A DNA stretch of 64,000 bases from a virus, in IMG/VR virus record IMGVR_UViG_3300049460_000196, positions 49,104-113,103 of that record. One strand, 5' to 3'. The notes under the pieces are model-generated. The model was not told the origin of the DNA. It did no database searches and saw nothing but the letters and a program-made list of their open reading frames with translations. Both the position numbers and the translations under genes were made by a program. Shown here in pieces: positions 8,050-48,787 of the stretch; positions within the stretch are counted from its first letter, which is position 1, and each line of letters opens with the position of its first letter.

Positions 8050-8134
8050 TGGTGCCCAGAGCCGGAATCGAACCGGCACGCCTTGCGGCAGCGGATTTTG
8101 AGTCCGCCAAGTCTACCAGTTTCATCATCTGGGC
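8050..8134 (-). tRNA. tRNA-Leu(CAA)
   Basis: class II cloverleaf, CCA. Confidence 0.9.
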
Positions 8135-15358: not shown

Positions 15359-15442
15359 TGGTCCCCTGGGCGAGATTCGAACTCGCAAAAGCCTGCCTTC
15401 TGACGACAGTAGGTGTACCAGATTTCCACTAGCCACCAGGGG
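15359..15442 (-). tRNA. tRNA-Leu(CAG), expanded D region, short variable loop
   Basis: paralog of 9601..9684; loop GT-CAG-AA. Confidence 0.7.
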
Positions 15443-18793: not shown

Positions 18794-18822
18794 TGTATAT
18801 GACCATTGATATGGTGCAATAA

Positions 18823-18915
18823 AGTATTAAGGGGTGGCCACCGAGAATTGAACTCGAGTAAACGGGATCACAACCCGCGTCATTAACCACTATGATATGG
18901 CCACACCTTAATACT
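18823..18915 (-). tRNA. tRNA-His(GTG) with extended acceptor helix, no CCA
   Basis: ends CCT; flanks AGTATTAAGG/CCTTAATACT pair. Confidence 0.8.
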
Positions 18916-18977
18916 CTAAAGTGACGGTTACGAGCTCCGTCAATCGCTCTATATTGCGCTCGCTTTCTACTACTGTT

Positions 18978-19051
18978 TGGCAGGCCATGAGGGAATCGAA
19001 CCCCCGTCCTTGGTTTTGGAGACCAGTACACTACCGTTGTGCTAATGACCT
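18978..19051 (-). tRNA. tRNA-Trp(CCA)
   Basis: cloverleaf, CCA. Confidence 0.9.
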
Positions 19052-19057
19052 AATGTA

Positions 19058-19140
19058 TGGCAGGAGCTGTGGGACTCGAACCCACGTGGATTTCTCGACG
19101 GCTTTGGAGACCGTTGCAATCGCCGCTATGCGAAACTCCT
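19058..19140 (-). tRNA. tRNA-Trp(CCA), long variable region
   Basis: loop CT-CCA-AA, ~12-nt variable region, CCA. Confidence 0.8.
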
Positions 19141-19222
19141 GTTGAAACTAATTGTACCTGAGCCTCGAATTCCACGACGCCAGTCTATCCTTCAGGTACG
19201 TTTTGACGTATTGCTTGGCAGC

Positions 19223-19555
19223 TTACGCTGCTTTGTCTGGATATTGCTCATCCAGAATATCGATGTAATACAGTGGGCTCATGCCAGGTTCCAGGAAATG
19301 GACCTTGCTGAAGCCGTTTGCTTCATCGATCATGCTATCTTGTGGCTGGATGGCGCCGGCATACTTACGGAAGCCTGGCTTGTTCATCATCTTGCCTGTT
19401 GCTGGATCAATGGAACCCCATTCAGTCCAGTCTGTTTTACTACGACCATCAATCGGTTCAACGAAGTAGCGTTTGCCAGTACGTTGCGAGTTGACGATAA
19501 AACGACCAGTGTCGTCTGTGTTGGTAAGGAACCGTTTAAGGAAGTCGGCATTCAT
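19223..19555 (-). CDS. hypothetical protein
   Basis: start MNADF, 110 aa. Confidence 0.7.
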   Translation of the reverse strand: MNADFLKRFLTNTDDTGRFIVNSQRTGKRYFVEPIDGRSKTDWTEWGSIDPATGKMMNKPGFRKYAGAIQPQDSMIDEANGFSKVHFLEPGMSPLYYIDILDEQYPDKAA

Positions 19556-19666
19556 GTTATTATTCTCGGGTTGATTTAAAATCTCCGAGACATTGTCATC
19601 GGAGCAGCTTAGATTGTGATGACAAAGTGGTACATGATAGCCTCCATGGCTGGTTAATAAAATGTT

Positions 19667-19743
19667 TGGAGCGGATAGCGAGGTTCGAACTCGCGACATT
19701 CACGTTGGCAACGTGATGCTCTACCAGACTGAGCTATATCCGC
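19667..19743 (-). tRNA. tRNA-Gly(GCC)
   Basis: cloverleaf, U73, CCA. Confidence 0.92.
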
Positions 19744-19749
19744 ATTGTT

Positions 19750-19824
19750 TGGCGACGCCTAGGGGGATCGAACCCCTGACCTTCGGATGGACAATCCACT
19801 GCTCTTCCGCTGAGCTAAGGCGCC
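19750..19824 (-). tRNA. tRNA-Asp(GTC)
   Basis: cloverleaf, G73, CCA. Confidence 0.88.
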
Positions 19825-19877
19825 AATTTGTTAGGAAATTTCCTTAAAGATGATTTGCATTCATGTTTAAAGAAACT

Positions 19878-19953
19878 TGGTGGACGCGGTGGGGTTCGAA
19901 CCCACGACCTTCGGATTAAGAGTCCGTTACTCTACCAGCTGAGTTACACGTCC
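19878..19953 (-). tRNA. tRNA-Lys(CTT)
   Basis: cloverleaf, CCA. Confidence 0.92.
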
Positions 19954-19959
19954 GTACTG

Positions 19960-20035
19960 TGGTGGAAGTGGAGGGACTCGAACCCCCGTCGCACCGGTTA
20001 AGAGCCGGGCCTCTAGCCTGTTGAGTTACACTTCC
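19960..20035 (-). tRNA. tRNA-Lys(CTT)
   Basis: cloverleaf, CCA. Confidence 0.88.
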
Positions 20036-20048
20036 AAGTGTATTTGAT

Positions 20049-20136
20049 TGGTGGGAGCAGTGGGGATCGAACCCACTCTGGACTTTCGTCTCGCCGGATT
20101 AAAAGTCCGGTGCCTACCCAATTCGGCATTACTCCC
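20049..20136 (-). tRNA. tRNA-Lys(TTT), long variable arm
   Basis: loop CT-TTT-AA, GAC-GAAA-GTC variable hairpin, CCA. Confidence 0.8.
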
Positions 20137-20146
20137 TGTGAAACAA

Positions 20147-20221
20147 TGGTAGGGCCGCAGGAGCTCGAATCCTGTTTGTCTGGTTAAAAGCCAGATACTT
20201 CACCATTAAAGTTTCAACCCC
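20147..20221 (-). tRNA. tRNA-Lys(TTT)
   Basis: divergent cloverleaf, CCA. Confidence 0.8.
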
Positions 20222-20367
20222 TTTGATTTGACGTGGCACACGTCGATCTCGGGGGTGGCAGGAGCAATCCAATCAAACAACTACACTTGGAATTACTTAG
20301 TCACCCCCGAAAGTTTGCCAGATTTGTCACTTTCCATGACAGGCTCCTTTCAGAAATGTAATTTGGA

Positions 20368-20490
20368 TATTGCGATTTACCAGGTATCCCAATGACGAGA
20401 CCAATCGCTCCAACAGGCTGGAGTTCCAGATGATGCGCATTCAACTCGCGTTGACCATACGTGCCACTCACGGCATAACACCTCGCAATA
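20368..20490 (-). ncRNA. putative structured RNA
   Basis: TATTGCGA/TCGCAATA terminal stem, internal hairpins, within the tRNA array. Confidence 0.4.
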
Positions 20491-20495
20491 AAACT

Positions 20496-20571
20496 TGGTG
20501 GAGGATATCGGGATCGAACCGATGACCTTTAGCTTGCAAAGCTACTGCTCTCCCAGCTGAGCTAATCCCCC
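20496..20571 (-). tRNA. tRNA-Ala(TGC)
   Basis: cloverleaf, G3.U70, CCA. Confidence 0.93.
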
Positions 20572-20661
20572 AGGGTGGCAATGTTTGTACCGGTATGGCA
20601 AACATCACCCGCACATGCCGACTAGAACCTTTTCAGGGGATGAGGACATGAACGTTTAACT

Positions 20662-20738
20662 TGGTCTCCAGTGCAAGATTCGAACTTGCGCCCCATGGTC
20701 CCAAACCACGTGGATTAACCTGACTTTCCTAACCGGAG
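20662..20738 (-). tRNA. tRNA-Pro(TGG)
   Basis: cloverleaf, CCA. Confidence 0.88.
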
Positions 20739-20787
20739 ATAAAAACTTGGTATCTAGTACTGGTCTCGAACCAGTGACCTCATCGAT

Positions 20788-21045
20788 TTAATCGATTGTA
20801 CCGTTGACTTTTATTTGTACAAGATCGCTAAACATTTTAGAGATCCCACTCAACTCATTCAAATAATCTTCCGTCAACTTATCGTCTTCGGTTAATTCAA
20901 CTTTTAAATTAAGTTCAGCTCTTTGTTCTTGTACTTGTTTGTGAATAAGTGCAGTGGCCACTTGCAATGTGTCGATTGGTAAACTACTCGCCAACATAGC
21001 TACTGCATTCCGAAGTGCCAATATTTGTACTTGAGTTGATGACAT
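20788..21045 (-). CDS. hypothetical protein inside split tRNA
   Basis: 85 aa, start MSSTQ after AGGAG. Confidence 0.65.
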   Translation of the reverse strand: MSSTQVQILALRNAVAMLASSLPIDTLQVATALIHKQVQEQRAELNLKVELTEDDKLTEDYLNELSGISKMFSDLVQIKVNGTID

Positions 21046-21104
21046 ATGATTCTCCTTTAGAACAAACAGGATGCACATGTTTTTGTCATACCGCAATATT
21101 ATTC

Positions 21105-21179
21105 TGGTACTCACGGAAGGAATTGAACCTTCGACCCTCTCCACGTCAAGGAGGCATTCTACCACTGAACTACGTGAGC
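21105..21179 (-). tRNA. tRNA-Val(GAC), nested in split tRNA
   Basis: cloverleaf, CCA. Confidence 0.9.
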
Positions 21180-21180
21180 A

Positions 21181-21534
21181 TTATCTTTTCTTGTTACCCC
21201 AGGTAGGGGTCTGTCTGTGGCAGTTTGGACACAGAAATCTCAAATTATCTGGATGATTGTTGGTCTTTACCCCATCCATATGGTCGATATCCAAACTAAG
21301 TGGTTTACCGCACCAGTCACTTACTGCACAACATGAACAGGCATAACCGTCGCGTTCCGTTAAGAACTTGATCATCGCCGGGCTATTATAATGAACAGCA
21401 CCTTGCAATATTTTCGGTTTGGTAACCGATATCCAGGTAAATGCGTGTTGGCATTTGTTCGAGCAGTATTTGCCATTAAATGCTGGCGGTTTATACTTTG
21501 TTGGTTTACCACAATTGATACATGATCTTTCCAT
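21181..21534 (-). CDS. HNH endonuclease
   Basis: LDIDHMDGVKTNNHPDNLRFLCPNCH; TATAAATA at 21552-21559. Confidence 0.9.
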   Translation of the reverse strand: MERSCINCGKPTKYKPPAFNGKYCSNKCQHAFTWISVTKPKILQGAVHYNSPAMIKFLTERDGYACSCCAVSDWCGKPLSLDIDHMDGVKTNNHPDNLRFLCPNCHRQTPTWGNKKR

Positions 21535-21616
21535 ATAAGCACCTTTTCAGGTATTTATAAGAGCGATCTGGTTCAACGATGTGCTCTACCAACTGAGCTA
21601 ACTAGATATTGAAACT

Positions 21617-21691
21617 TGGCAGCGAATCTAGGGCTCGAACCTAGGACCTTGAGATTCAAAATCTCCTGCTCTACCTCTGAGCTAATCCGCA
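21617..21691 (-). tRNA. tRNA-Gln(TTG)
   Basis: cloverleaf, CCA. Confidence 0.88.
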
Positions 21692-21700
21692 ACTGAAACT

Positions 21701-21780
21701 TGGCGACCTAGATGGGTATCGAACCCACCTGAATATCTTCCGTGACAGGGAAGTGACCACTCCATGCAGTCCCCTAGGCC
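21701..21780 (-). tRNA. tRNA-Asp(GTC)
   Basis: divergent D arm, loop CT-GTC-AC, CCA. Confidence 0.82.
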
Positions 21781-21797
21781 ATATTACTAATTGTCAA

Positions 21798-21869
21798 TGG
21801 TCCCTCGTGATGGAGTCGAACCACCCTATTAGCGTTCGTAGCGCCAATGCCGTATCCCACGGACGAGAG
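21798..21869 (-). tRNA. tRNA-Arg(ACG), compact fold
   Basis: 6-bp anticodon stem TTGGCG/CGCTAA, CCA. Confidence 0.75.
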
Positions 21870-21872
21870 AAA

Positions 21873-21977
21873 TATTCTTAGTTGCGGGCCCTGGATTTGA
21901 ACCAGGACAAGCATTAGATGTCTCGGGATTATGAGCCCCGCGTGTTACCAGGTTACACTAACCCGCGACTAAGAATA
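21873..21977 (-). tRNA. initiator-type tRNA(CAT) with long variable region and extended acceptor helix, no CCA
   Basis: C1.A72, G-rich anticodon stem, flanks TATTCTTAGT/ACTAAGAATA. Confidence 0.75.
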
Positions 21978-21997
21978 CTTGGTATTACATACTTGAA

Positions 21998-22076
21998 TGG
22001 TGCGTCAGGCAGGGTTCGAACCTGCATGTGTCCAGTTACCTTTCGCCTGGTTCGTAGCCAAGGGGGATACTGACGC
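21998..22076 (-). tRNA. tRNA-Arg(ACG) lacking a D arm
   Basis: GCGTCAG/CTGACGC, loop CT-ACG-AA, T arm, CCA. Confidence 0.7.
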
Positions 22077-22078
22077 TT

Positions 22079-22153
22079 TGGTAGTTCCTGTTGGGATCGA
22101 ACCAACGACCTTCGCCTTGTAAGGGCGCTGCGCTACCTCTGCGCCAAGGAACC
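22079..22153 (-). tRNA. tRNA-Val(TAC)
   Basis: cloverleaf, CCA. Confidence 0.92.
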
Positions 22154-22169
22154 ATTGCATTGTTGATTG

Positions 22170-22246
22170 TGGTCGCTTCTGATAGTATCGACGTATCGTC
22201 TACCCCTCTTCACGGGGCCGCTAGTACCATTCTCAGCTAAGAAGCA
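22170..22246 (-). tRNA. tRNA-Phe(GAA), degenerate T loop
   Basis: loop GT-GAA-GA, T loop GTCGATA, CCA. Confidence 0.65.
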
Positions 22247-22279
22247 AGTTTTTATCAACAACGATTTACTACAAAAATC

Positions 22280-22354
22280 TGGCAGGGAATGTTGGGCTTG
22301 AACCAACGACCTTCGGATTCAGAATCCGCTGCTCTACCTCTGAGCTAATCCCCA
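22280..22354 (-). tRNA. tRNA-Gln(CTG)
   Basis: cloverleaf, CCA. Confidence 0.88.
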
Positions 22355-22371
22355 ACTGTGTACTACTAAAC

Positions 22372-22446
22372 TGGTGCCCCAGGATGGAATCGAACCACCG
22401 CACGCTGCTTACAAAACAGCACCTCTACCATTAAGGATACAAGGGC
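22372..22446 (-). tRNA. tRNA-Thr(TGT)
   Basis: cloverleaf, CCA. Confidence 0.85.
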
Positions 22447-22450
22447 GTAA

Positions 22451-22554
22451 TATCGTTTGCTCCGAGAGCTGGATTCGAACCAGCGGCGGCCTTTACGGCG
22501 ACGGATTAACAGTCCGGTCTCTGCTACCACTCGAGTACCTCGGAGCAAACAATA
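22451..22554 (-). tRNA. tRNA-Asn(GTT), long variable arm, extended acceptor helix, no CCA
   Basis: loop CT-GTT-AA; flanks TATTGTTTGC/GCAAACGATA. Confidence 0.75.
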
Positions 22555-22563
22555 CTACCTATA

Positions 22564-22655
22564 AATCATATGCTGTCAAGACTGGGCTCGAACCAGTGAC
22601 CCGATGATTAACAGTCATCTGCTCTACCAACTGAGCTACATGACAGCATATGATT
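22564..22655 (-). tRNA. tRNA-Asn(GTT), extended acceptor helix, no CCA
   Basis: flanks AATCATATGC/GCATATGATT. Confidence 0.82.
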
Positions 22656-22663
22656 CATAAACT

Positions 22664-22741
22664 TGGTGGTGTTGGGCGGCCTCGAACCGCCAAGCAACAG
22701 GATCTCGACCTGTTAGGTATACCAATTCCCTTCACAACACC
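22664..22741 (-). tRNA. tRNA-Leu(GAG), short variable loop
   Basis: loop TC-GAG-AT, CCA. Confidence 0.78.
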
Positions 22742-22742
22742 T

Positions 22743-22819
22743 TGGTAGTCCCTGTTGGATTTGAACCAACGACCTATGCGTTATCAACACATTGCTCTAA
22801 CCAGCTGAGCTAAGGAACC
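22743..22819 (-). tRNA. tRNA-Ile(GAT)
   Basis: cloverleaf, CCA. Confidence 0.92.
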
Positions 22820-22829
22820 TTCGTATTAA

Positions 22830-22886
22830 CGGGATGACTTTTGGTTTCTGTTTTCAAAAGAAGTTTTTAGTTGCTGTACGCATCCC
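22830..22886 (-). ncRNA. stem+CAGCAA repeat RNA, copy B (TT-GAA-AA loop)
   Basis: GGGATG/CATCCC stem, GTACAGCAA. Confidence 0.7.
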
Positions 22887-22909
22887 ATAAGTCTTGCGAC
22901 TCATTTTCT

Positions 22910-22985
22910 TGGCTAGGGTTGATGGACTCGAACCACCGACATACGGGATCAAAACCCGCTGTTCTACCAACTGAACTAAACCCCA
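22910..22985 (-). tRNA. tRNA-Gln(TTG)
   Basis: cloverleaf, CCA. Confidence 0.9.
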
Positions 22986-22996
22986 ACTGTAAACCA

Positions 22997-23071
22997 TGGT
23001 CGTTGATATTGGTATCGAACCAATCTCTATGCCTTATCAAGACATTGCTAATCCATCTCAGCTAATCAACG
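22997..23071 (-). tRNA. tRNA-Ile(GAT)
   Basis: cloverleaf, CCA. Confidence 0.85.
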
Positions 23072-23081
23072 ATTTAATACT

Positions 23082-23158
23082 TGGCGGAACAGACGGGGCT
23101 CGAACCCGCGACCTTCGCCGTGACAGGGCGACGCTCTAACCAACTGAGCTACTGCTCC
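23082..23158 (-). tRNA. tRNA-Asp(GTC)
   Basis: canonical cloverleaf, CCA. Confidence 0.95.
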
Positions 23159-23202
23159 AACGACATGCAGGGCAGTTTTGCCTCACATCATGTTATGAAA
23201 TC

Positions 23203-23273
23203 TGGTGGACCGTACGGGACTCGAACCCGTGATAGAGCATTGCAAGTGCCCCGCCAACCCCTGAAGACAGCCC
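23203..23273 (-). tRNA. tRNA-Ala(TGC), reduced D arm
   Basis: G3.U70, loop CT-TGC-AA, CCA. Confidence 0.75.
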
Positions 23274-23293
23274 AGAAATCTTATTACTAAACT

Positions 23294-23369
23294 TGGTGCA
23301 GTCAACTGGTATCGAACCAGTATCCCCGGACTTTCAAACCGTCGCATAGACCATCTTTGCTATGACTGC
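23294..23369 (-). tRNA. tRNA-Phe(GAA)
   Basis: cloverleaf with weak anticodon stem, CCA. Confidence 0.78.
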
Positions 23370-23399
23370 ATGAAACTTGATTGCTCAAGTTCTAAAACT

Positions 23400-23474
23400 T
23401 GGTGCCCCCGGTTGGTATCGAACCAACCTCTACGACTTTTCAGGCCGTCGCTAATCCATCTCAGCTACAGGGGC
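23400..23474 (-). tRNA. tRNA-Phe(GAA)
   Basis: cloverleaf, CCA. Confidence 0.88.
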
Positions 23475-23479
23475 ATATT

Positions 23480-23598
23480 CACATTATTCAAATTCACTAT
23501 GTCAGATGTGAAGGGATCGAACCTTCGACCTCATGGTCCCAAACCACGCGCTCTCCCTGGCTGAGCTAACACCTGACATAATAAACTTGAATAATGTG
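23480..23598 (-). tRNA. tRNA-Pro(TGG) with 23-bp extended acceptor helix, no CCA
   Basis: flanks pair fully, with three G.U pairs. Confidence 0.8.
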
Positions 23599-44561: not shown

Positions 44562-46376
44562 ATGGCTAATACAAAGAATTTTGGATTAGACGGCGTTGCT
44601 TCATCCTTGCAATTGGGCAAGGGTGGCCAGCATGTGGTCAGCGAGGGTGGTAAGATTTCCGCCAAGTCTGCTGATGGCACAACTCTGGTTAACGTGCAAG
44701 CTGCTGATCCAGTAGCACCTAGCGACGTAGTCACCAAGCAGGTCCTCGATGCAGTTGATGGTGCTGCAATCAAACTCGGTAACCCTACCGATGCAAGTCT
44801 GGCTGATGGCGCAGTGCCACTCACCAGCACAACAACCGTGGTTAATGCGGTTGATCAACTGAACGAAATCTTGGGTAAACTCGTTCCAGTAGCACCAACT
44901 AACTTCCCTGCTGGTCAAACACTGACTGTTACTAGCGTGGGTACTACACCATTGCTGGCTTCTGGTTCAGTTCCAGATAATACTTCAGGTGGCACTTTGC
45001 CTGTTGTGGCTGGTGCTTCGGTCACTCGTATTACTGCTGCTACTGTTTCGTCGAACGTAATTGGCGACAACGGTACAACTGGTTTCGTGGGTCCAGGTGA
45101 CTCCGGTACCCTGCAAGCTTTGGTAAACAATGCCGTTGCTGATTCACAAGTTATGGCAACTGGCTCACAAAACAAGTCAGGTGTTCTGACCATCAGTAAT
45201 GATCAAGCATATCCACTGGCAACTCCTGGTTTCTGGGAGAGCTTCCGTGCGCAAGTCGCAGGTGCTGCTGCAACTCAAGGTTGGAACCGCATCAAGTTGA
45301 ATCACACTGGTGCCGGTGCAACCAACGATGTGTACTTTGTTCGTGACAACATTACCGCCAACCCAGTAGTATCGGCTGGTACCGTTGTTGAAGGCACGGC
45401 TGGTACATTGGCTTACTCGTCAGGTGTTCCACACTATGGCACAGGCGCAAGTTTGACAATTGGTTTCACTGCATCGAATCTGGCTGGTGAGACTTACAAG
45501 AGTGGCACAATCTTGTCGACAGCGCCAACAACCGCTGGCGCATTCACAACCGTTAATTATGCTGCTGGTTCGGGTGGTCTGCCTGCAATCCTGGCTCGTC
45601 AAACTACTTCGTTCACCGCATCTGGTTTGTCATTGCCAATCGATGGTACCAACTTCCACAACACTACCCAAGTTTCGGCTTTGGCAAGCAATGTGAACGG
45701 TACAGGTTCGACCACTATTGGTCCAATCGTACTGGTTAAACGTGGTACAACTAGTCGTGTTGACGAACTGTCCTTCCCAGTATCGATTGCTGTCAACGGT
45801 GGCGTCACTGGTAACGGTTTCCGCGTCGTAATGGGCAACAATGATAATCCGGCTGACGACAAGTCCGGTTTGACTGCCACTGACTGGATCCAAGCAAATG
45901 CGATTTCAGCATGGGATGCAACTGTAGTGGGCGGTGTTCTGAAAAATGACACCACGAACTACACAACTGGTTATCTGCCAGTTGGTCCTAACCTGTCAAC
46001 CCAAAATGCAAGTCAGTACATCACTATCGCCGTGCGTCGTACTGCTGTGTCGAAGTTTGATATCGCGGTAACTGGTTCATATGCGGGTATGTGGGTTAAA
46101 CTGCCAGGCGTAACTGATAGCAAGACTACAAGTGCAAATGGTTGGTACTCGATGTCAACTCTGTACGGTGGTGCTGGTTTCCCAGGTGATACTGGTGGTG
46201 CTAACGGTTCGTTGGGTTGCGCTTTGGGTGCGGTTGCAAGCGGTAGTGGTTCGTTCACTTGCACATTCGGTACTCTGAGTTCCACCTCATCCGCAAATAA
46301 CCTGATCTTGGTTCGCATCAAGCTGAACGCTGGTCAGAGTATTTCGGCATTGAGCTTTGTTCCAGCCACACGCTAA
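44562..46376 (+). CDS. virion structural protein
   Basis: 604 aa, G/T/S-rich, TAAATA and AGGAG upstream. Confidence 0.75.
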   Translation: MANTKNFGLDGVASSLQLGKGGQHVVSEGGKISAKSADGTTLVNVQAADPVAPSDVVTKQVLDAVDGAAIKLGNPTDASLADGAVPLTSTTTVVNAVDQLNEILGKLVPVAPTNFPAGQTLTVTSVGTTPLLASGSVPDNTSGGTLPVVAGASVTRITAATVSSNVIGDNGTTGFVGPGDSGTLQALVNNAVADSQVMATGSQNKSGVLTISNDQAYPLATPGFWESFRAQVAGAAATQGWNRIKLNHTGAGATNDVYFVRDNITANPVVSAGTVVEGTAGTLAYSSGVPHYGTGASLTIGFTASNLAGETYKSGTILSTAPTTAGAFTTVNYAAGSGGLPAILARQTTSFTASGLSLPIDGTNFHNTTQVSALASNVNGTGSTTIGPIVLVKRGTTSRVDELSFPVSIAVNGGVTGNGFRVVMGNNDNPADDKSGLTATDWIQANAISAWDATVVGGVLKNDTTNYTTGYLPVGPNLSTQNASQYITIAVRRTAVSKFDIAVTGSYAGMWVKLPGVTDSKTTSANGWYSMSTLYGGAGFPGDTGGANGSLGCALGAVASGSGSFTCTFGTLSSTSSANNLILVRIKLNAGQSISALSFVPATR

Positions 46377-47871: not shown

Positions 47872-48787
47872 TTAATGGCAGTACACCATCTCTTGTTTGT
47901 TGGTCAGTACACCGAACAAAATGTCAGCGAAACGGTATGCCCACTTGCCGCCCTTCCAAGCCTTGACGTTGTCTGGATGAGTAGCAACCGGATGACGCAC
48001 ACTTGGATCTTGCCCGAAGTTCCAGTGATTGAACTCCATTTCCTTCTTGTCGTTCAGACGATACCAGATAGTGATTCGACCACAGTGCTTCAATTCTTCA
48101 AGTGATCGGAAACCATAGCGTGCCAGTACTGCACGCCCAGCATCATTGGCACCTTTAATACCACCACCGGGCCCACCTGGAATGAAAGAGGGAATATCGC
48201 TCATATGTGCTCCTGATCCATAAAGCCATGATAGTACAGGAGCACAACCAGTTAGTCAACTGGTGGGGTCACTCGAGTGACGATAAGCTTTGCGAGTTCC
48301 TTCAATACATCAACTTCGTAAAGTTGTTCTTGTGTGAAACCATTCTTGTCGATGAATTGCACCATCTTGTGCCTGTCATCGTAGTCGTAAACTGCCACTT
48401 TGCGTCCATCAGGAAACATTTTGGTGCTGCCAATCATGATTCACCTCATAGGTTGAACTTCTTGATCACACGAGATACCGCATATTCGGCTAGGAATTCT
48501 GGCATCCCCATTTGACTACTAATCGTCACAGCAACTTGCTGGAAGAATTCAGTACGGCGCTCTGGTTCCTGATACGCAGTCACGCCACGCAGGACCATCT
48601 CCTTGACAGTACGATAGTCCATGTAAATCATCACTGGAATAGTGAACACAACAATGCCCAGCATGATCAAACCGCACACAACTGGCACAATACCGTCGGT
48701 TGCGTAAATGGCCACAATCCAGGCCACTAAGGCGATGATGATTGCAGTAAGGTATGGTACGATGTACCACGAAATAAGATGTTTCAT
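47872..48787 (-). other. three hypothetical ORFs (47872-48204, 48252-48437, 48446-48787 membrane protein)
   Basis: co-directional ORFs; the last has two TM segments. Confidence 0.6.

Follow-up and report, generated by a model that had tools for sequence, protein, structure and literature searches.

Leader and trailer segments that pair around a stable RNA are known from bacterial 16S and 23S precursor ribosomal RNA (pre-rRNA), in which RNase III cuts the resulting stem and excises the RNA from a polycistronic transcript; the cut falls tens of nucleotides outside the mature ends, which other nucleases then produce. In Escherichia coli/T7-type substrates, phage RNA is likewise made for cutting by the host RNase III, the target being a simple hairpin between mRNAs with an 11-bp helix, a proximal box beside the scissile bond and a distal box 9 to 10 pairs off, one set of boxes defining the site. 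Transfer RNA (tRNA) 5′ ends, on the other hand, are to our knowledge regarded as being made near-universally by RNase P. Those of phage T4 are made by RNase P as well; the RNase III site of T4 is located in the tRNA-cluster leader and is not known to enclose individual tRNAs, and the CCA-less Pro, Ser and Ile tRNA genes of T4 need RNase BN and the CCA-adding enzyme. The T4 cluster is transcribed as a multimer, some of its genes lack CCA, and E. coli RNase III is reported to act in the maturation of its tRNAs (PMC4810235, refs 47 and 48). Here, we analysed a 64,000-nt stretch of giant phage DNA (positions 49,104 to 113,103 of IMG/VR record IMGVR_UViG_3300049460_000196; hereafter, the window), in which five genes of a large tRNA array are enclosed by leader and trailer segments that pair with each other beyond the acceptor stem. 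We refer to this helix as the clamp, and we consider it reasonably probable, as judged from sequence and predicted structure, that it is an RNase III processing signal around a working tRNA, which would be released by RNase III and then completed by CCA addition.

As in pre-rRNA, the flanks of one stable RNA pair in the clamp, but the predicted cuts would lie at the mature 5′ end and at C74 or C75, with CCA completion alone remaining. Compared with the T7-type hairpin, the "loop" side of the clamp is open, and the cut is predicted to create tRNA ends, a whole tRNA standing on its other side. In eukaryotic nuclear pre-tRNAs, the acceptor helix is also extended by base pairs between 5′ leader and 3′ trailer, but those helices are short, have an interruption next to the RNase P site that leaves the enzyme room to act, and show no RNase III signal. 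YrlA-type Y RNAs (bound by Ro60/Rsr) are tRNA-shaped phage RNAs with an extra helix formed by distant segments, whereas the clamped tRNAs are complete, anticodon arm included, and the added helix extends the acceptor stem. In a literature search, we found papers on RNase III stems for rRNA and on the RNase III role in T4 tRNA maturation (the latter in PMC4810235), and, among the papers open to searching, none on tRNA clamps of this kind or on this maturation route.

Five tRNA genes of the array are clamped

The source is a 113-kb viral contig, 27% complete by CheckV, and ARAGORN called 53 tRNA genes in the window and 55 in the whole contig, all on the minus strand. CCA is encoded after 48 of the 53, and the exceptions (tRNA-His, an initiator-type tRNA-Met, two tRNA-Asn and tRNA-Pro) are exactly the five named in a preliminary description of the window. 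With the acceptor stem placed explicitly and the extension counted from pair −1:73, leader and trailer paired for 13 bp in His (beyond a U−1 × C73 mismatch), 13 bp in Met (with the initiator C1 × A72 mismatch retained), 14 bp in an Asn gene with a long variable arm (long Asn), 10 Watson-Crick bp, or up to 17 bp with G·U, in the standard-length Asn gene (short Asn), and 23 bp in Pro, in agreement with the 10 to 23 bp given in that description. The leader/trailer duplex energies of the five, from −13.0 to −27.3 kcal/mol, separated cleanly from those of every CCA-bearing tRNA of the contig (−11.3 kcal/mol or weaker). Both the minimum-energy and the centroid fold contained the extended helix in all five cases, with z-scores between −4.8 and −9.1 and none of 200 shuffles as good. 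Their G·U pairs lie on the transcribed, tRNA-sense strand, as expected under the earlier suggestion that these pairs favour RNA-level pairing on the minus strand, and no arm sequence is shared between the five loci.

The clamped genes are complete cloverleaves scoring 46 to 66 bits with the Rfam tRNA model (cut-off, 29), with 3′ ends CCCU, ACU, GCA, GCA and ACA and no CCA after the discriminator, and the discriminators are retained (G73 in Asn, A73 in Pro and Met, C73 in His). The whole contig has no Asn genes besides the two clamped ones, which extends what had been noted for the window. The clamps do not have the form of intrinsic terminators, as U83–U85 are paired with leader A/G within a distal helix that is rich in A+U and is not followed by a U tract, nor are they Y RNA- or YrlA-like, RF00005 (tRNA) being the sole Rfam match in the region and the anticodon arms being intact.

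Clamps are conserved and limited to a few tRNA identities

Phage tRNAs were surveyed among relatives of a small array-encoded protein, in further stretches of five such genomes, and among matches to a long-variable-arm Asn pattern and to a tRNA-His-body pattern; flanking sequence was left out of both patterns, and the sampling was partly baited. The extension score was bimodal among 1457 distinct phage tRNAs, with 5 or less in 1427 and at least 8 in 29. In the first 29 clamps, the helices contained 41 G·U versus 6 A·C on the tRNA strand, which argues for selection on RNA and not on a DNA palindrome. Between homologues, the arm sequences were wholly different and the pairing was retained. In an alignment of 18 clamped tRNA-His genes, two-sided changes were found at 8 pairs of the 13-pair extension, and 95.7% of cells were paired, versus 39–54% in slid controls; the whole-structure measures were reached by none of 500 shuffles, and pair −4:76 alternated between A:U when the gene ended in CCCU and U:A when it ended in CCCA. 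A paired-fraction shuffle of the non-His clamps (97% versus 66%) was not counted as independent evidence, since these clamps had been preselected for pairing and the comparison is hence biased. These data indicated that the clamp is a conserved, covarying and selected RNA element and not a chance pairing.

After a third viral scan, the survey held 49 clamps among 2036 tRNAs: 32 on His, 9 on Asn, 3 on Pro, and one each on Met, Ile, Arg, Gly and Leu. None was found on 14 other identities in roughly 1000 tRNAs of this set, so that clamps are limited to His, Asn, Pro and a few others. With the bait tRNAs excluded, 10 of 51 His, 3 of 46 Asn and 3 of 94 Pro tRNAs were clamped, and in this non-bait set clamps were enriched on CCA-less genes (odds ratio, 9.3; 14/20 clamped versus 380/1897 unclamped genes without CCA). 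The idea that the helices stand "instead of CCA" thus holds as a tendency and not as a rule, since CCA is encoded in 13 of the 32 clamped His genes, and CCA-bearing clamped Asn and Ile genes also occur in relatives. Relatives G003 and G005 (loci L027–L029 and L032–L033) contain mostly tRNA genes ending in N73-C74-A/T in place of N73-CCA, yet clamps were found on just one Asn and one Pro tRNA there. These results indicated that the clamp follows tRNA identity more than the absence of CCA. In the survey as a whole, C74 is nearly always retained in phage tRNAs without CCA, with CA in 68, CT in 56, CG in 40 and CC in 13.

Clamps of different identities share a helix end 13–14 pairs out, a G−2:C74 pair, a wobble pair at a fixed place, and an A/G-rich leader end paired to the U83–U85 run. 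A pyrimidine at +1 was present in 14 of 16 non-His clamps versus 23% of the background, an excess that largely restates the identity bias; the converse, that all tRNAs with a +1 pyrimidine are clamped, proved false, as Gln, Arg and another Pro tRNA of the window are unclamped. When viral contigs were searched with a bait comprising the T loop and the trailer consensus only, 15 of the 42 tRNAs retrieved had a complementary leader (His, 11/15; Asn, 3/5; Arg, 1/1; others, 0/21), and the leader G of the U·G pair, which lies outside the bait, was present in most. The same bait retrieved 46 tRNAs from one genome per prokaryote species, none of them clamped and none of them His or Asn. The sole clamp among 92 tRNAs sampled from cellular genomes belongs to a CCA-bearing tRNA-Thr of Candidatus Doudnabacteria (locus L381), with a leader/trailer helix spanning about 21 positions.

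Among cultured phages, BLAST with the two Asn clamps gave about 1500 tRNA matches; no clamp was found in the four records inspected (Acinetobacter phage Mystique, Aeromonas phage LAh_6, Salmonella phage SP1 and Ralstonia phage FLC4-3B), and flank overlap was at the level of chance. A clamped His gene matched 345 cultured phages, mostly T4-like. The two inspected, Escherichia phage vB_EcoM_ECO78 (L350:1502-1577) and Citrobacter phage Merlin (L351:1502-1577), differ from the window in that their tRNA-His genes are unclamped, so that these searches gave no cultured example; both have T and not G at −1.

Clamps match the recognition rules of RNase III

Helices down to 11 bp, but no shorter, react with E. 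coli RNase III; the proximal box has GC at position 1, AU/UA at position 2, AU at position 3 and AU/UA at position 4 beside the scissile bond, and G:C at position 2 prevents binding; U:A followed by U·G makes up the distal box, one set of boxes is enough for site choice, and the products have 2-nt 3′ overhangs (PMC1540722). The C9:G30 variant, which alters box position 2 of a 34-nt RNA whose leader is 6 nt long, places the proximal box at pairs 1–4 (PMC1540722). The consensus of the clamp trailer arms, 5′-W-A-A-G-NNNN-U-U-N-3′, follows this arrangement. In the 32 His clamps (pairs are written trailer base first), the proximal part comprised U:A in 19, A:U in 11 and A × C in 2 at position 76, A:U in 29 at 77, A:U in 32 at 78, and G:C in 20 at 79; positions 80–83 were variable and were followed by U·G in 24 and U:A in 7 at 84 and by U:A in 32 at 85, with 86 usually paired and 87 onward unpaired. 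In the 16 non-His clamps, the same series was shifted one position toward the tRNA, with A:U in 12 and U:A in 2 at 75, A:U in 12 at 76, A:U in 13 and U:A in 3 at 77, G:C in 5 and G·U in 4 at 78, U·G in 9 at 83 and U:A in 11 at 84. Consistently, the consensus score was highest with 76 as the first pair in all 18 His clamps scored, and with 75 as the first pair in 8 of 11 clamps of other identities.

None of the 48 clamps had G:C or C:G at proximal box position 2, and U·G occupied the distal-box position in 33 of the 48, versus 2.4% of other helix positions. The helix runs from 75/76 to 85/86 in most clamps, most of them ending at 85–87, and each of the five window clamps has at least 11 bp from the predicted cut. 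In the window, U·G is found at the distal box in all five clamps and the neighbouring U:A in four, the short Asn having A:U there, while the proximal box is a complete match in Met and is off at one or two positions in long Asn, Pro and His.

Predicted cuts and a possible route of maturation

The trailer, which supplies the U residues of the distal box, corresponds to the strand running from the cut into the box helix, and the scissile bond would therefore lie just 5′ of nucleotide 75, or of 76 in His. In the route we propose, the leader/trailer helix would be stacked on the acceptor stem within the polycistronic transcript, and the 11-bp element starting at 75 (76 in His) would present a proximal box of W:W′, A:U, A:U and G:C beside the scissile bond, four variable pairs, a distal box of U·G then U:A, and one closing pair. 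Host RNase III would make its usual staggered cut at the clamp, the second scissile bond lying two nucleotides 3′ of the leader partner. In Asn, Pro and Met, cuts between −1 and +1 and between 74 and 75 would leave a mature 5′ phosphate and a 2-nt 3′ overhang, N73-C74. In His, where the signal lies one base pair farther out, cuts between −2 and −1 and between 75 and 76 would leave an extra 5′ nucleotide and a C73-C74-C75 end. A CCA-adding enzyme, of the host or the phage's own as in relatives, would then add CA, or A for His. tRNA-His typically carries an extra 5′ nucleotide (−1), and the one-base shift in His, the sole tRNA with this nucleotide, is the strongest single argument for RNase III. 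The predicted cut positions would also account for A76 being dispensable and for C74 (and C75 in His) being encoded without exception. By contrast, C74 retention alone was rejected as proof of the 2-nt overhang, since CCA-less unclamped tRNAs keep C74 too.

The five sites can be placed exactly on the minus strand. tRNA-His(GUG) occupies 18831..18904 (G1 = 18904; C72 = 18834; C73–C75 = 18833–18831, followed by U), between a leader arm at 18905..18918 (−1 to −14, with the U−1 × C73 mismatch and the distal-box partners G−12 and A−13) and a trailer arm at 18820..18830 (76–86), which forms the 11-bp box helix with U84·G−12 and U85:A−13; the cuts are predicted between 18906 and 18905 and between 18831 and 18830. 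The initiator-type tRNA-Met(CAU), with a long variable arm, lies at 21881..21967 (C1 = 21967; A72 = 21883; A73 = 21882; C74 = 21881), with its leader arm at 21968..21980 (−1 to −13) and predicted cuts between 21968 and 21967 and between 21881 and 21880; its trailer arm at 21870..21880 (75–85), UAAG AAUA UU U, matches both boxes in full (proximal U:A, A:U, A:U, G:C; distal U83·G−11, U84:A−12). The long-variable-arm tRNA-Asn(GUU) (86 nt by ARAGORN) is at 22459..22544 (U1 = 22544; A72 = 22461; G73 = 22460; C74 = 22459), flanked by a leader arm at 22545..22558 (−1 to −14) and a trailer arm at 22447..22458 (75–86; AAAC GAUA UU AC, with U83·G−11 and U84:A−12), and would be cut between 22545 and 22544 and between 22459 and 22458. 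The trailer arm of the short Asn, at 22557..22571 (75–89, with U83·G−11), adjoins this leader arm; the gene itself, a standard-length tRNA-Asn(GUU), is at 22572..22645 (U1 = 22645; A72 = 22574; G73 = 22573; C74 = 22572), and its leader arm is at 22646..22662 (−1 to −17, the first 10 pairs being Watson-Crick). tRNA-Pro(UGG), the first gene of the main array, is at 23501..23575 (C1 = 23575; G72 = 23503; A73 = 23502; C74 = 23501), with a leader arm at 23576..23598 (−1 to −23), a trailer arm at 23480..23500 (75–95, with U83·G−11 and U84:A−12, the helix running to 23 bp) and predicted cuts between 23576 and 23575 and between 23501 and 23500.

Release by RNase III followed by CCA addition had been one of two outcomes considered in the preliminary description, and it gains from the box consensus standing in register with the tRNA ends and from a CCA-adding-type enzyme in three relatives, both read from sequence. 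The stronger claim, that a single RNase III cut makes both ends of certain phage tRNAs, including the −1 of His, with no RNase P or 3′ exonuclease, we put forward tentatively, as a possibility somewhat short of probable. Cleavage at the clamps would proceed without need for RNase P or 3′ exonucleases, and the purpose of the clamp may be to bypass RNase P at awkward 5′ ends, namely −1 in His and a +1 pyrimidine in Asn, Pro and initiator Met. If so, RNase III would make the 5′ end and pre-trim the 3′ end to C74 in a natural bacterial-virus exception to RNase P, and these phages would have an RNase P-independent tRNA maturation tuned to unusual 5′ ends. The dispensability of CCA, the concentration on His, Asn, Pro and initiator Met and the one-base shift in His would be explained together. 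Phage tRNA production would then hinge on host RNase III, with implications for host range and phage translation timing, and the clamp would offer a portable design for precise tRNA release from arrays in cell-free and synthetic systems. The predictions are exact and cheap, as five transcripts and one enzyme would suffice for mapping at single-nucleotide resolution.

Several observations weigh against this interpretation. The nucleotide at −1 is U and not G in 23 of the 32 clamped His genes, so the predicted product, with U−1 retained, would be unusual in most of them, and 13 of the 32 encode an A76 that the predicted cut would remove. In the proximal box of the window His, position 1 is A:U and position 3 is U:A. 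The short Asn deviates at position 1 and fits two registers (score 3.0 with first pair 75 and 5.0 with 76), and three non-His clamps fit another register. On the tRNA side of the predicted cut stand the acceptor and T stems, which are not a regular 11-bp duplex, with G:C as terminal pairs. No RNA runs holding the stretch are listed, and contigs from four runs that aligned to it are related DNA variants only, uninformative on RNA ends. The box rules, moreover, are those of E. coli RNase III on a T7 substrate. The distal box was numbered as pairs 9 and 10, with closing pair 11, from what we take to be the 28-nt product, AAAGGUCAUUC-GCAA-GAGUGGCCUUU-AU. This string was found solely in one unrelated paper, as a stem-loop RNA (PMC10359600), and the numbering derived from it agrees with all positional statements of PMC1540722, according to which distal-box preferences may vary among bacteria. 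A distal box at pairs 10–11, as read from the wording "adjacent to the tetraloop," was dropped because the C9:G30 variant and the 28-nt product fix the numbering.

Genes for processing enzymes

No RNase III gene (PF14622) was found in the phage contig or in four relatives, and the host enzyme would therefore have to act. A nucleotidyltransferase of the CCA-adding type (PF01743) is encoded by relatives G001, G002 and G003, which carry CCA-less tRNAs or clamps, and is absent from the fully assembled relative in which the stretches examined contained neither clamps nor CCA-less genes. An enzyme of the type that the preliminary description proposed to look for is thus present in relatives, while none was found in the 113 kb of the phage contig, itself about a quarter of the genome by the CheckV estimate.

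A class-A RNase P RNA-like gene lies on the minus strand at contig positions 48692–49052 (locus L472:1193-1553), about 50 nt upstream of the window. It scored 48.7 bits (E value, 2e-13), below the Rfam gathering score of 100; the catalytic-core strands are conserved, and most of the specificity domain is unaligned. The alignment contains GGU, which we read as the CCA-binding motif, and such a gene suits the CCA-bearing majority of the array and not the clamped genes.

Alternative explanations for the clamps

The clamp might instead be a folding or protection helix that keeps the two acceptor strands joined among the similar tRNAs of a crowded array, or protects a 3′ end without CCA against exonucleases, with ordinary processing afterwards by RNase E, RNase P (of host or phage), RNase Z/BN and a CCA-adding enzyme. 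The enrichment of clamps on CCA-less genes, the RNase P RNA-like gene just upstream of the window and the known maturation of CCA-less T4 tRNAs through RNase BN and CCA addition would all fit such a helix, as would the C74 kept in CCA-less unclamped tRNAs of relatives, which deprives C74 alone of any force as an argument for RNase III. We nevertheless regard this explanation as unlikely, because it leaves unexplained the fixed 11-bp module with conserved U·G/U:A at a set distance, the W-A-A-G block without G:C where RNase III rejects it, and the one-base shift in His; most CCA-less tRNAs of G003 and G005 are unclamped, and RNase P, as established work on this enzyme would predict, should be hindered by pairing at −1:73 and −2:74 and by burial of the 3′ end. 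The other outcome considered in the preliminary description was that of non-chargeable decoys, clamped end products that offer their anticodon loops to anticodon nucleases or tRNA-directed defences and never enter translation. Their ends are indeed buried in a stable helix, and their identities overlap the targets of tRNA-cleaving toxins (His and Asn for the colicin E5 type, initiator Met for VapC). Identity elements that matter for charging only (G73 in Asn, A73 in Pro, C73 in His, C1 × A72 in initiator Met) are conserved across diverged relatives, however, C74 is present in 30 of 30 clamps, the contig has no unclamped Asn tRNA, and the helix bears a nuclease-recognition signature and not arbitrary pairing; decoys are therefore very improbable.

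An origin at the DNA level, in which the arms are inverted repeats from or for a mobile tRNA cassette (a homing-endonuclease "cut and replace" event or a miniature transposon) with no RNA role, recalls the presence in the same array of a tRNA-splitting cassette, with an HNH open reading frame (ORF; 21180–21540) between tRNA halves, and the foreign style of the clamped genes, which keep C74 and lack CCA like the tRNAs of G003 and G005 and unlike most genes of the window. It hardly accords with the G·U excess over A·C being confined to the tRNA strand, with pairing kept between homologues whose arm sequences differ completely, with the lack of a flanking remnant of an older gene copy at the five clamps, or with arms that are not common to the five loci, and we give it scarcely any credence. 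A new gene nested in a wrecked older copy was also considered and rejected, as nothing beyond generic tRNA similarity was found at the flanks.

Other features of the window and the array

The scanned proteins are mostly of unknown family, with a few matches to phage tail, protease and homing-endonuclease families. Megablast detected no near relatives among deposited phages, and the best-matching DNA run is a rhizosphere metagenome, probably the source sample.

Two further tRNA genes have extended pairing. In a CCA-encoding tRNA-Leu(CAA) at 8050–8134, about 9 bp (−10.8 kcal/mol) join the leader to C75-A76 and the trailer, a weak helix without the proximal-box/distal-box pattern. A sixth CCA-less tRNA, Arg(UCU)-like, lies at contig positions 45779–45867 (locus L473:281-360), about 3.3 kb before the window starts; it scored 33 bits with the Rfam tRNA model and has an 8-bp leader/trailer extension (GGTCATTA/TAATGACC) that does not belong to the RNase III box type; C74 is missing, and an unusual insert follows the anticodon.

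Long variable arms or inserts give rise to tRNAs of 83–88 nt in identities that normally have a short variable region, namely initiator Met (21881–21967), Asn (22459–22544), Trp (19058–19140), Lys (20049–20136) and Arg (15359–15442), and the long-arm Asn form is recurrent in viral contigs (80 pattern matches). At 20748–21607, a tRNA is split into a 5′ half near 21600 and a 3′ half near 20790, between which lie the HNH endonuclease ORF, an intact tRNA-Val(GAC) at 21105–21179 and a small ORF; the arrangement resembles an endonuclease cassette that interrupted one tRNA gene and carried in a second. Two tRNA-like stretches, at 22010–22075 and 22170–22240, end in ACCA and have irregular D or T arms; neither was called by ARAGORN or by Rfam at the gathering threshold, and they may be degenerate or mimic tRNAs. 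Finally, the trailer CCA-AGTTT is common after many CCA-bearing tRNAs of the array (e.g., 23395–23403 and 22657–22666) and may be a shared 3′ processing signal.

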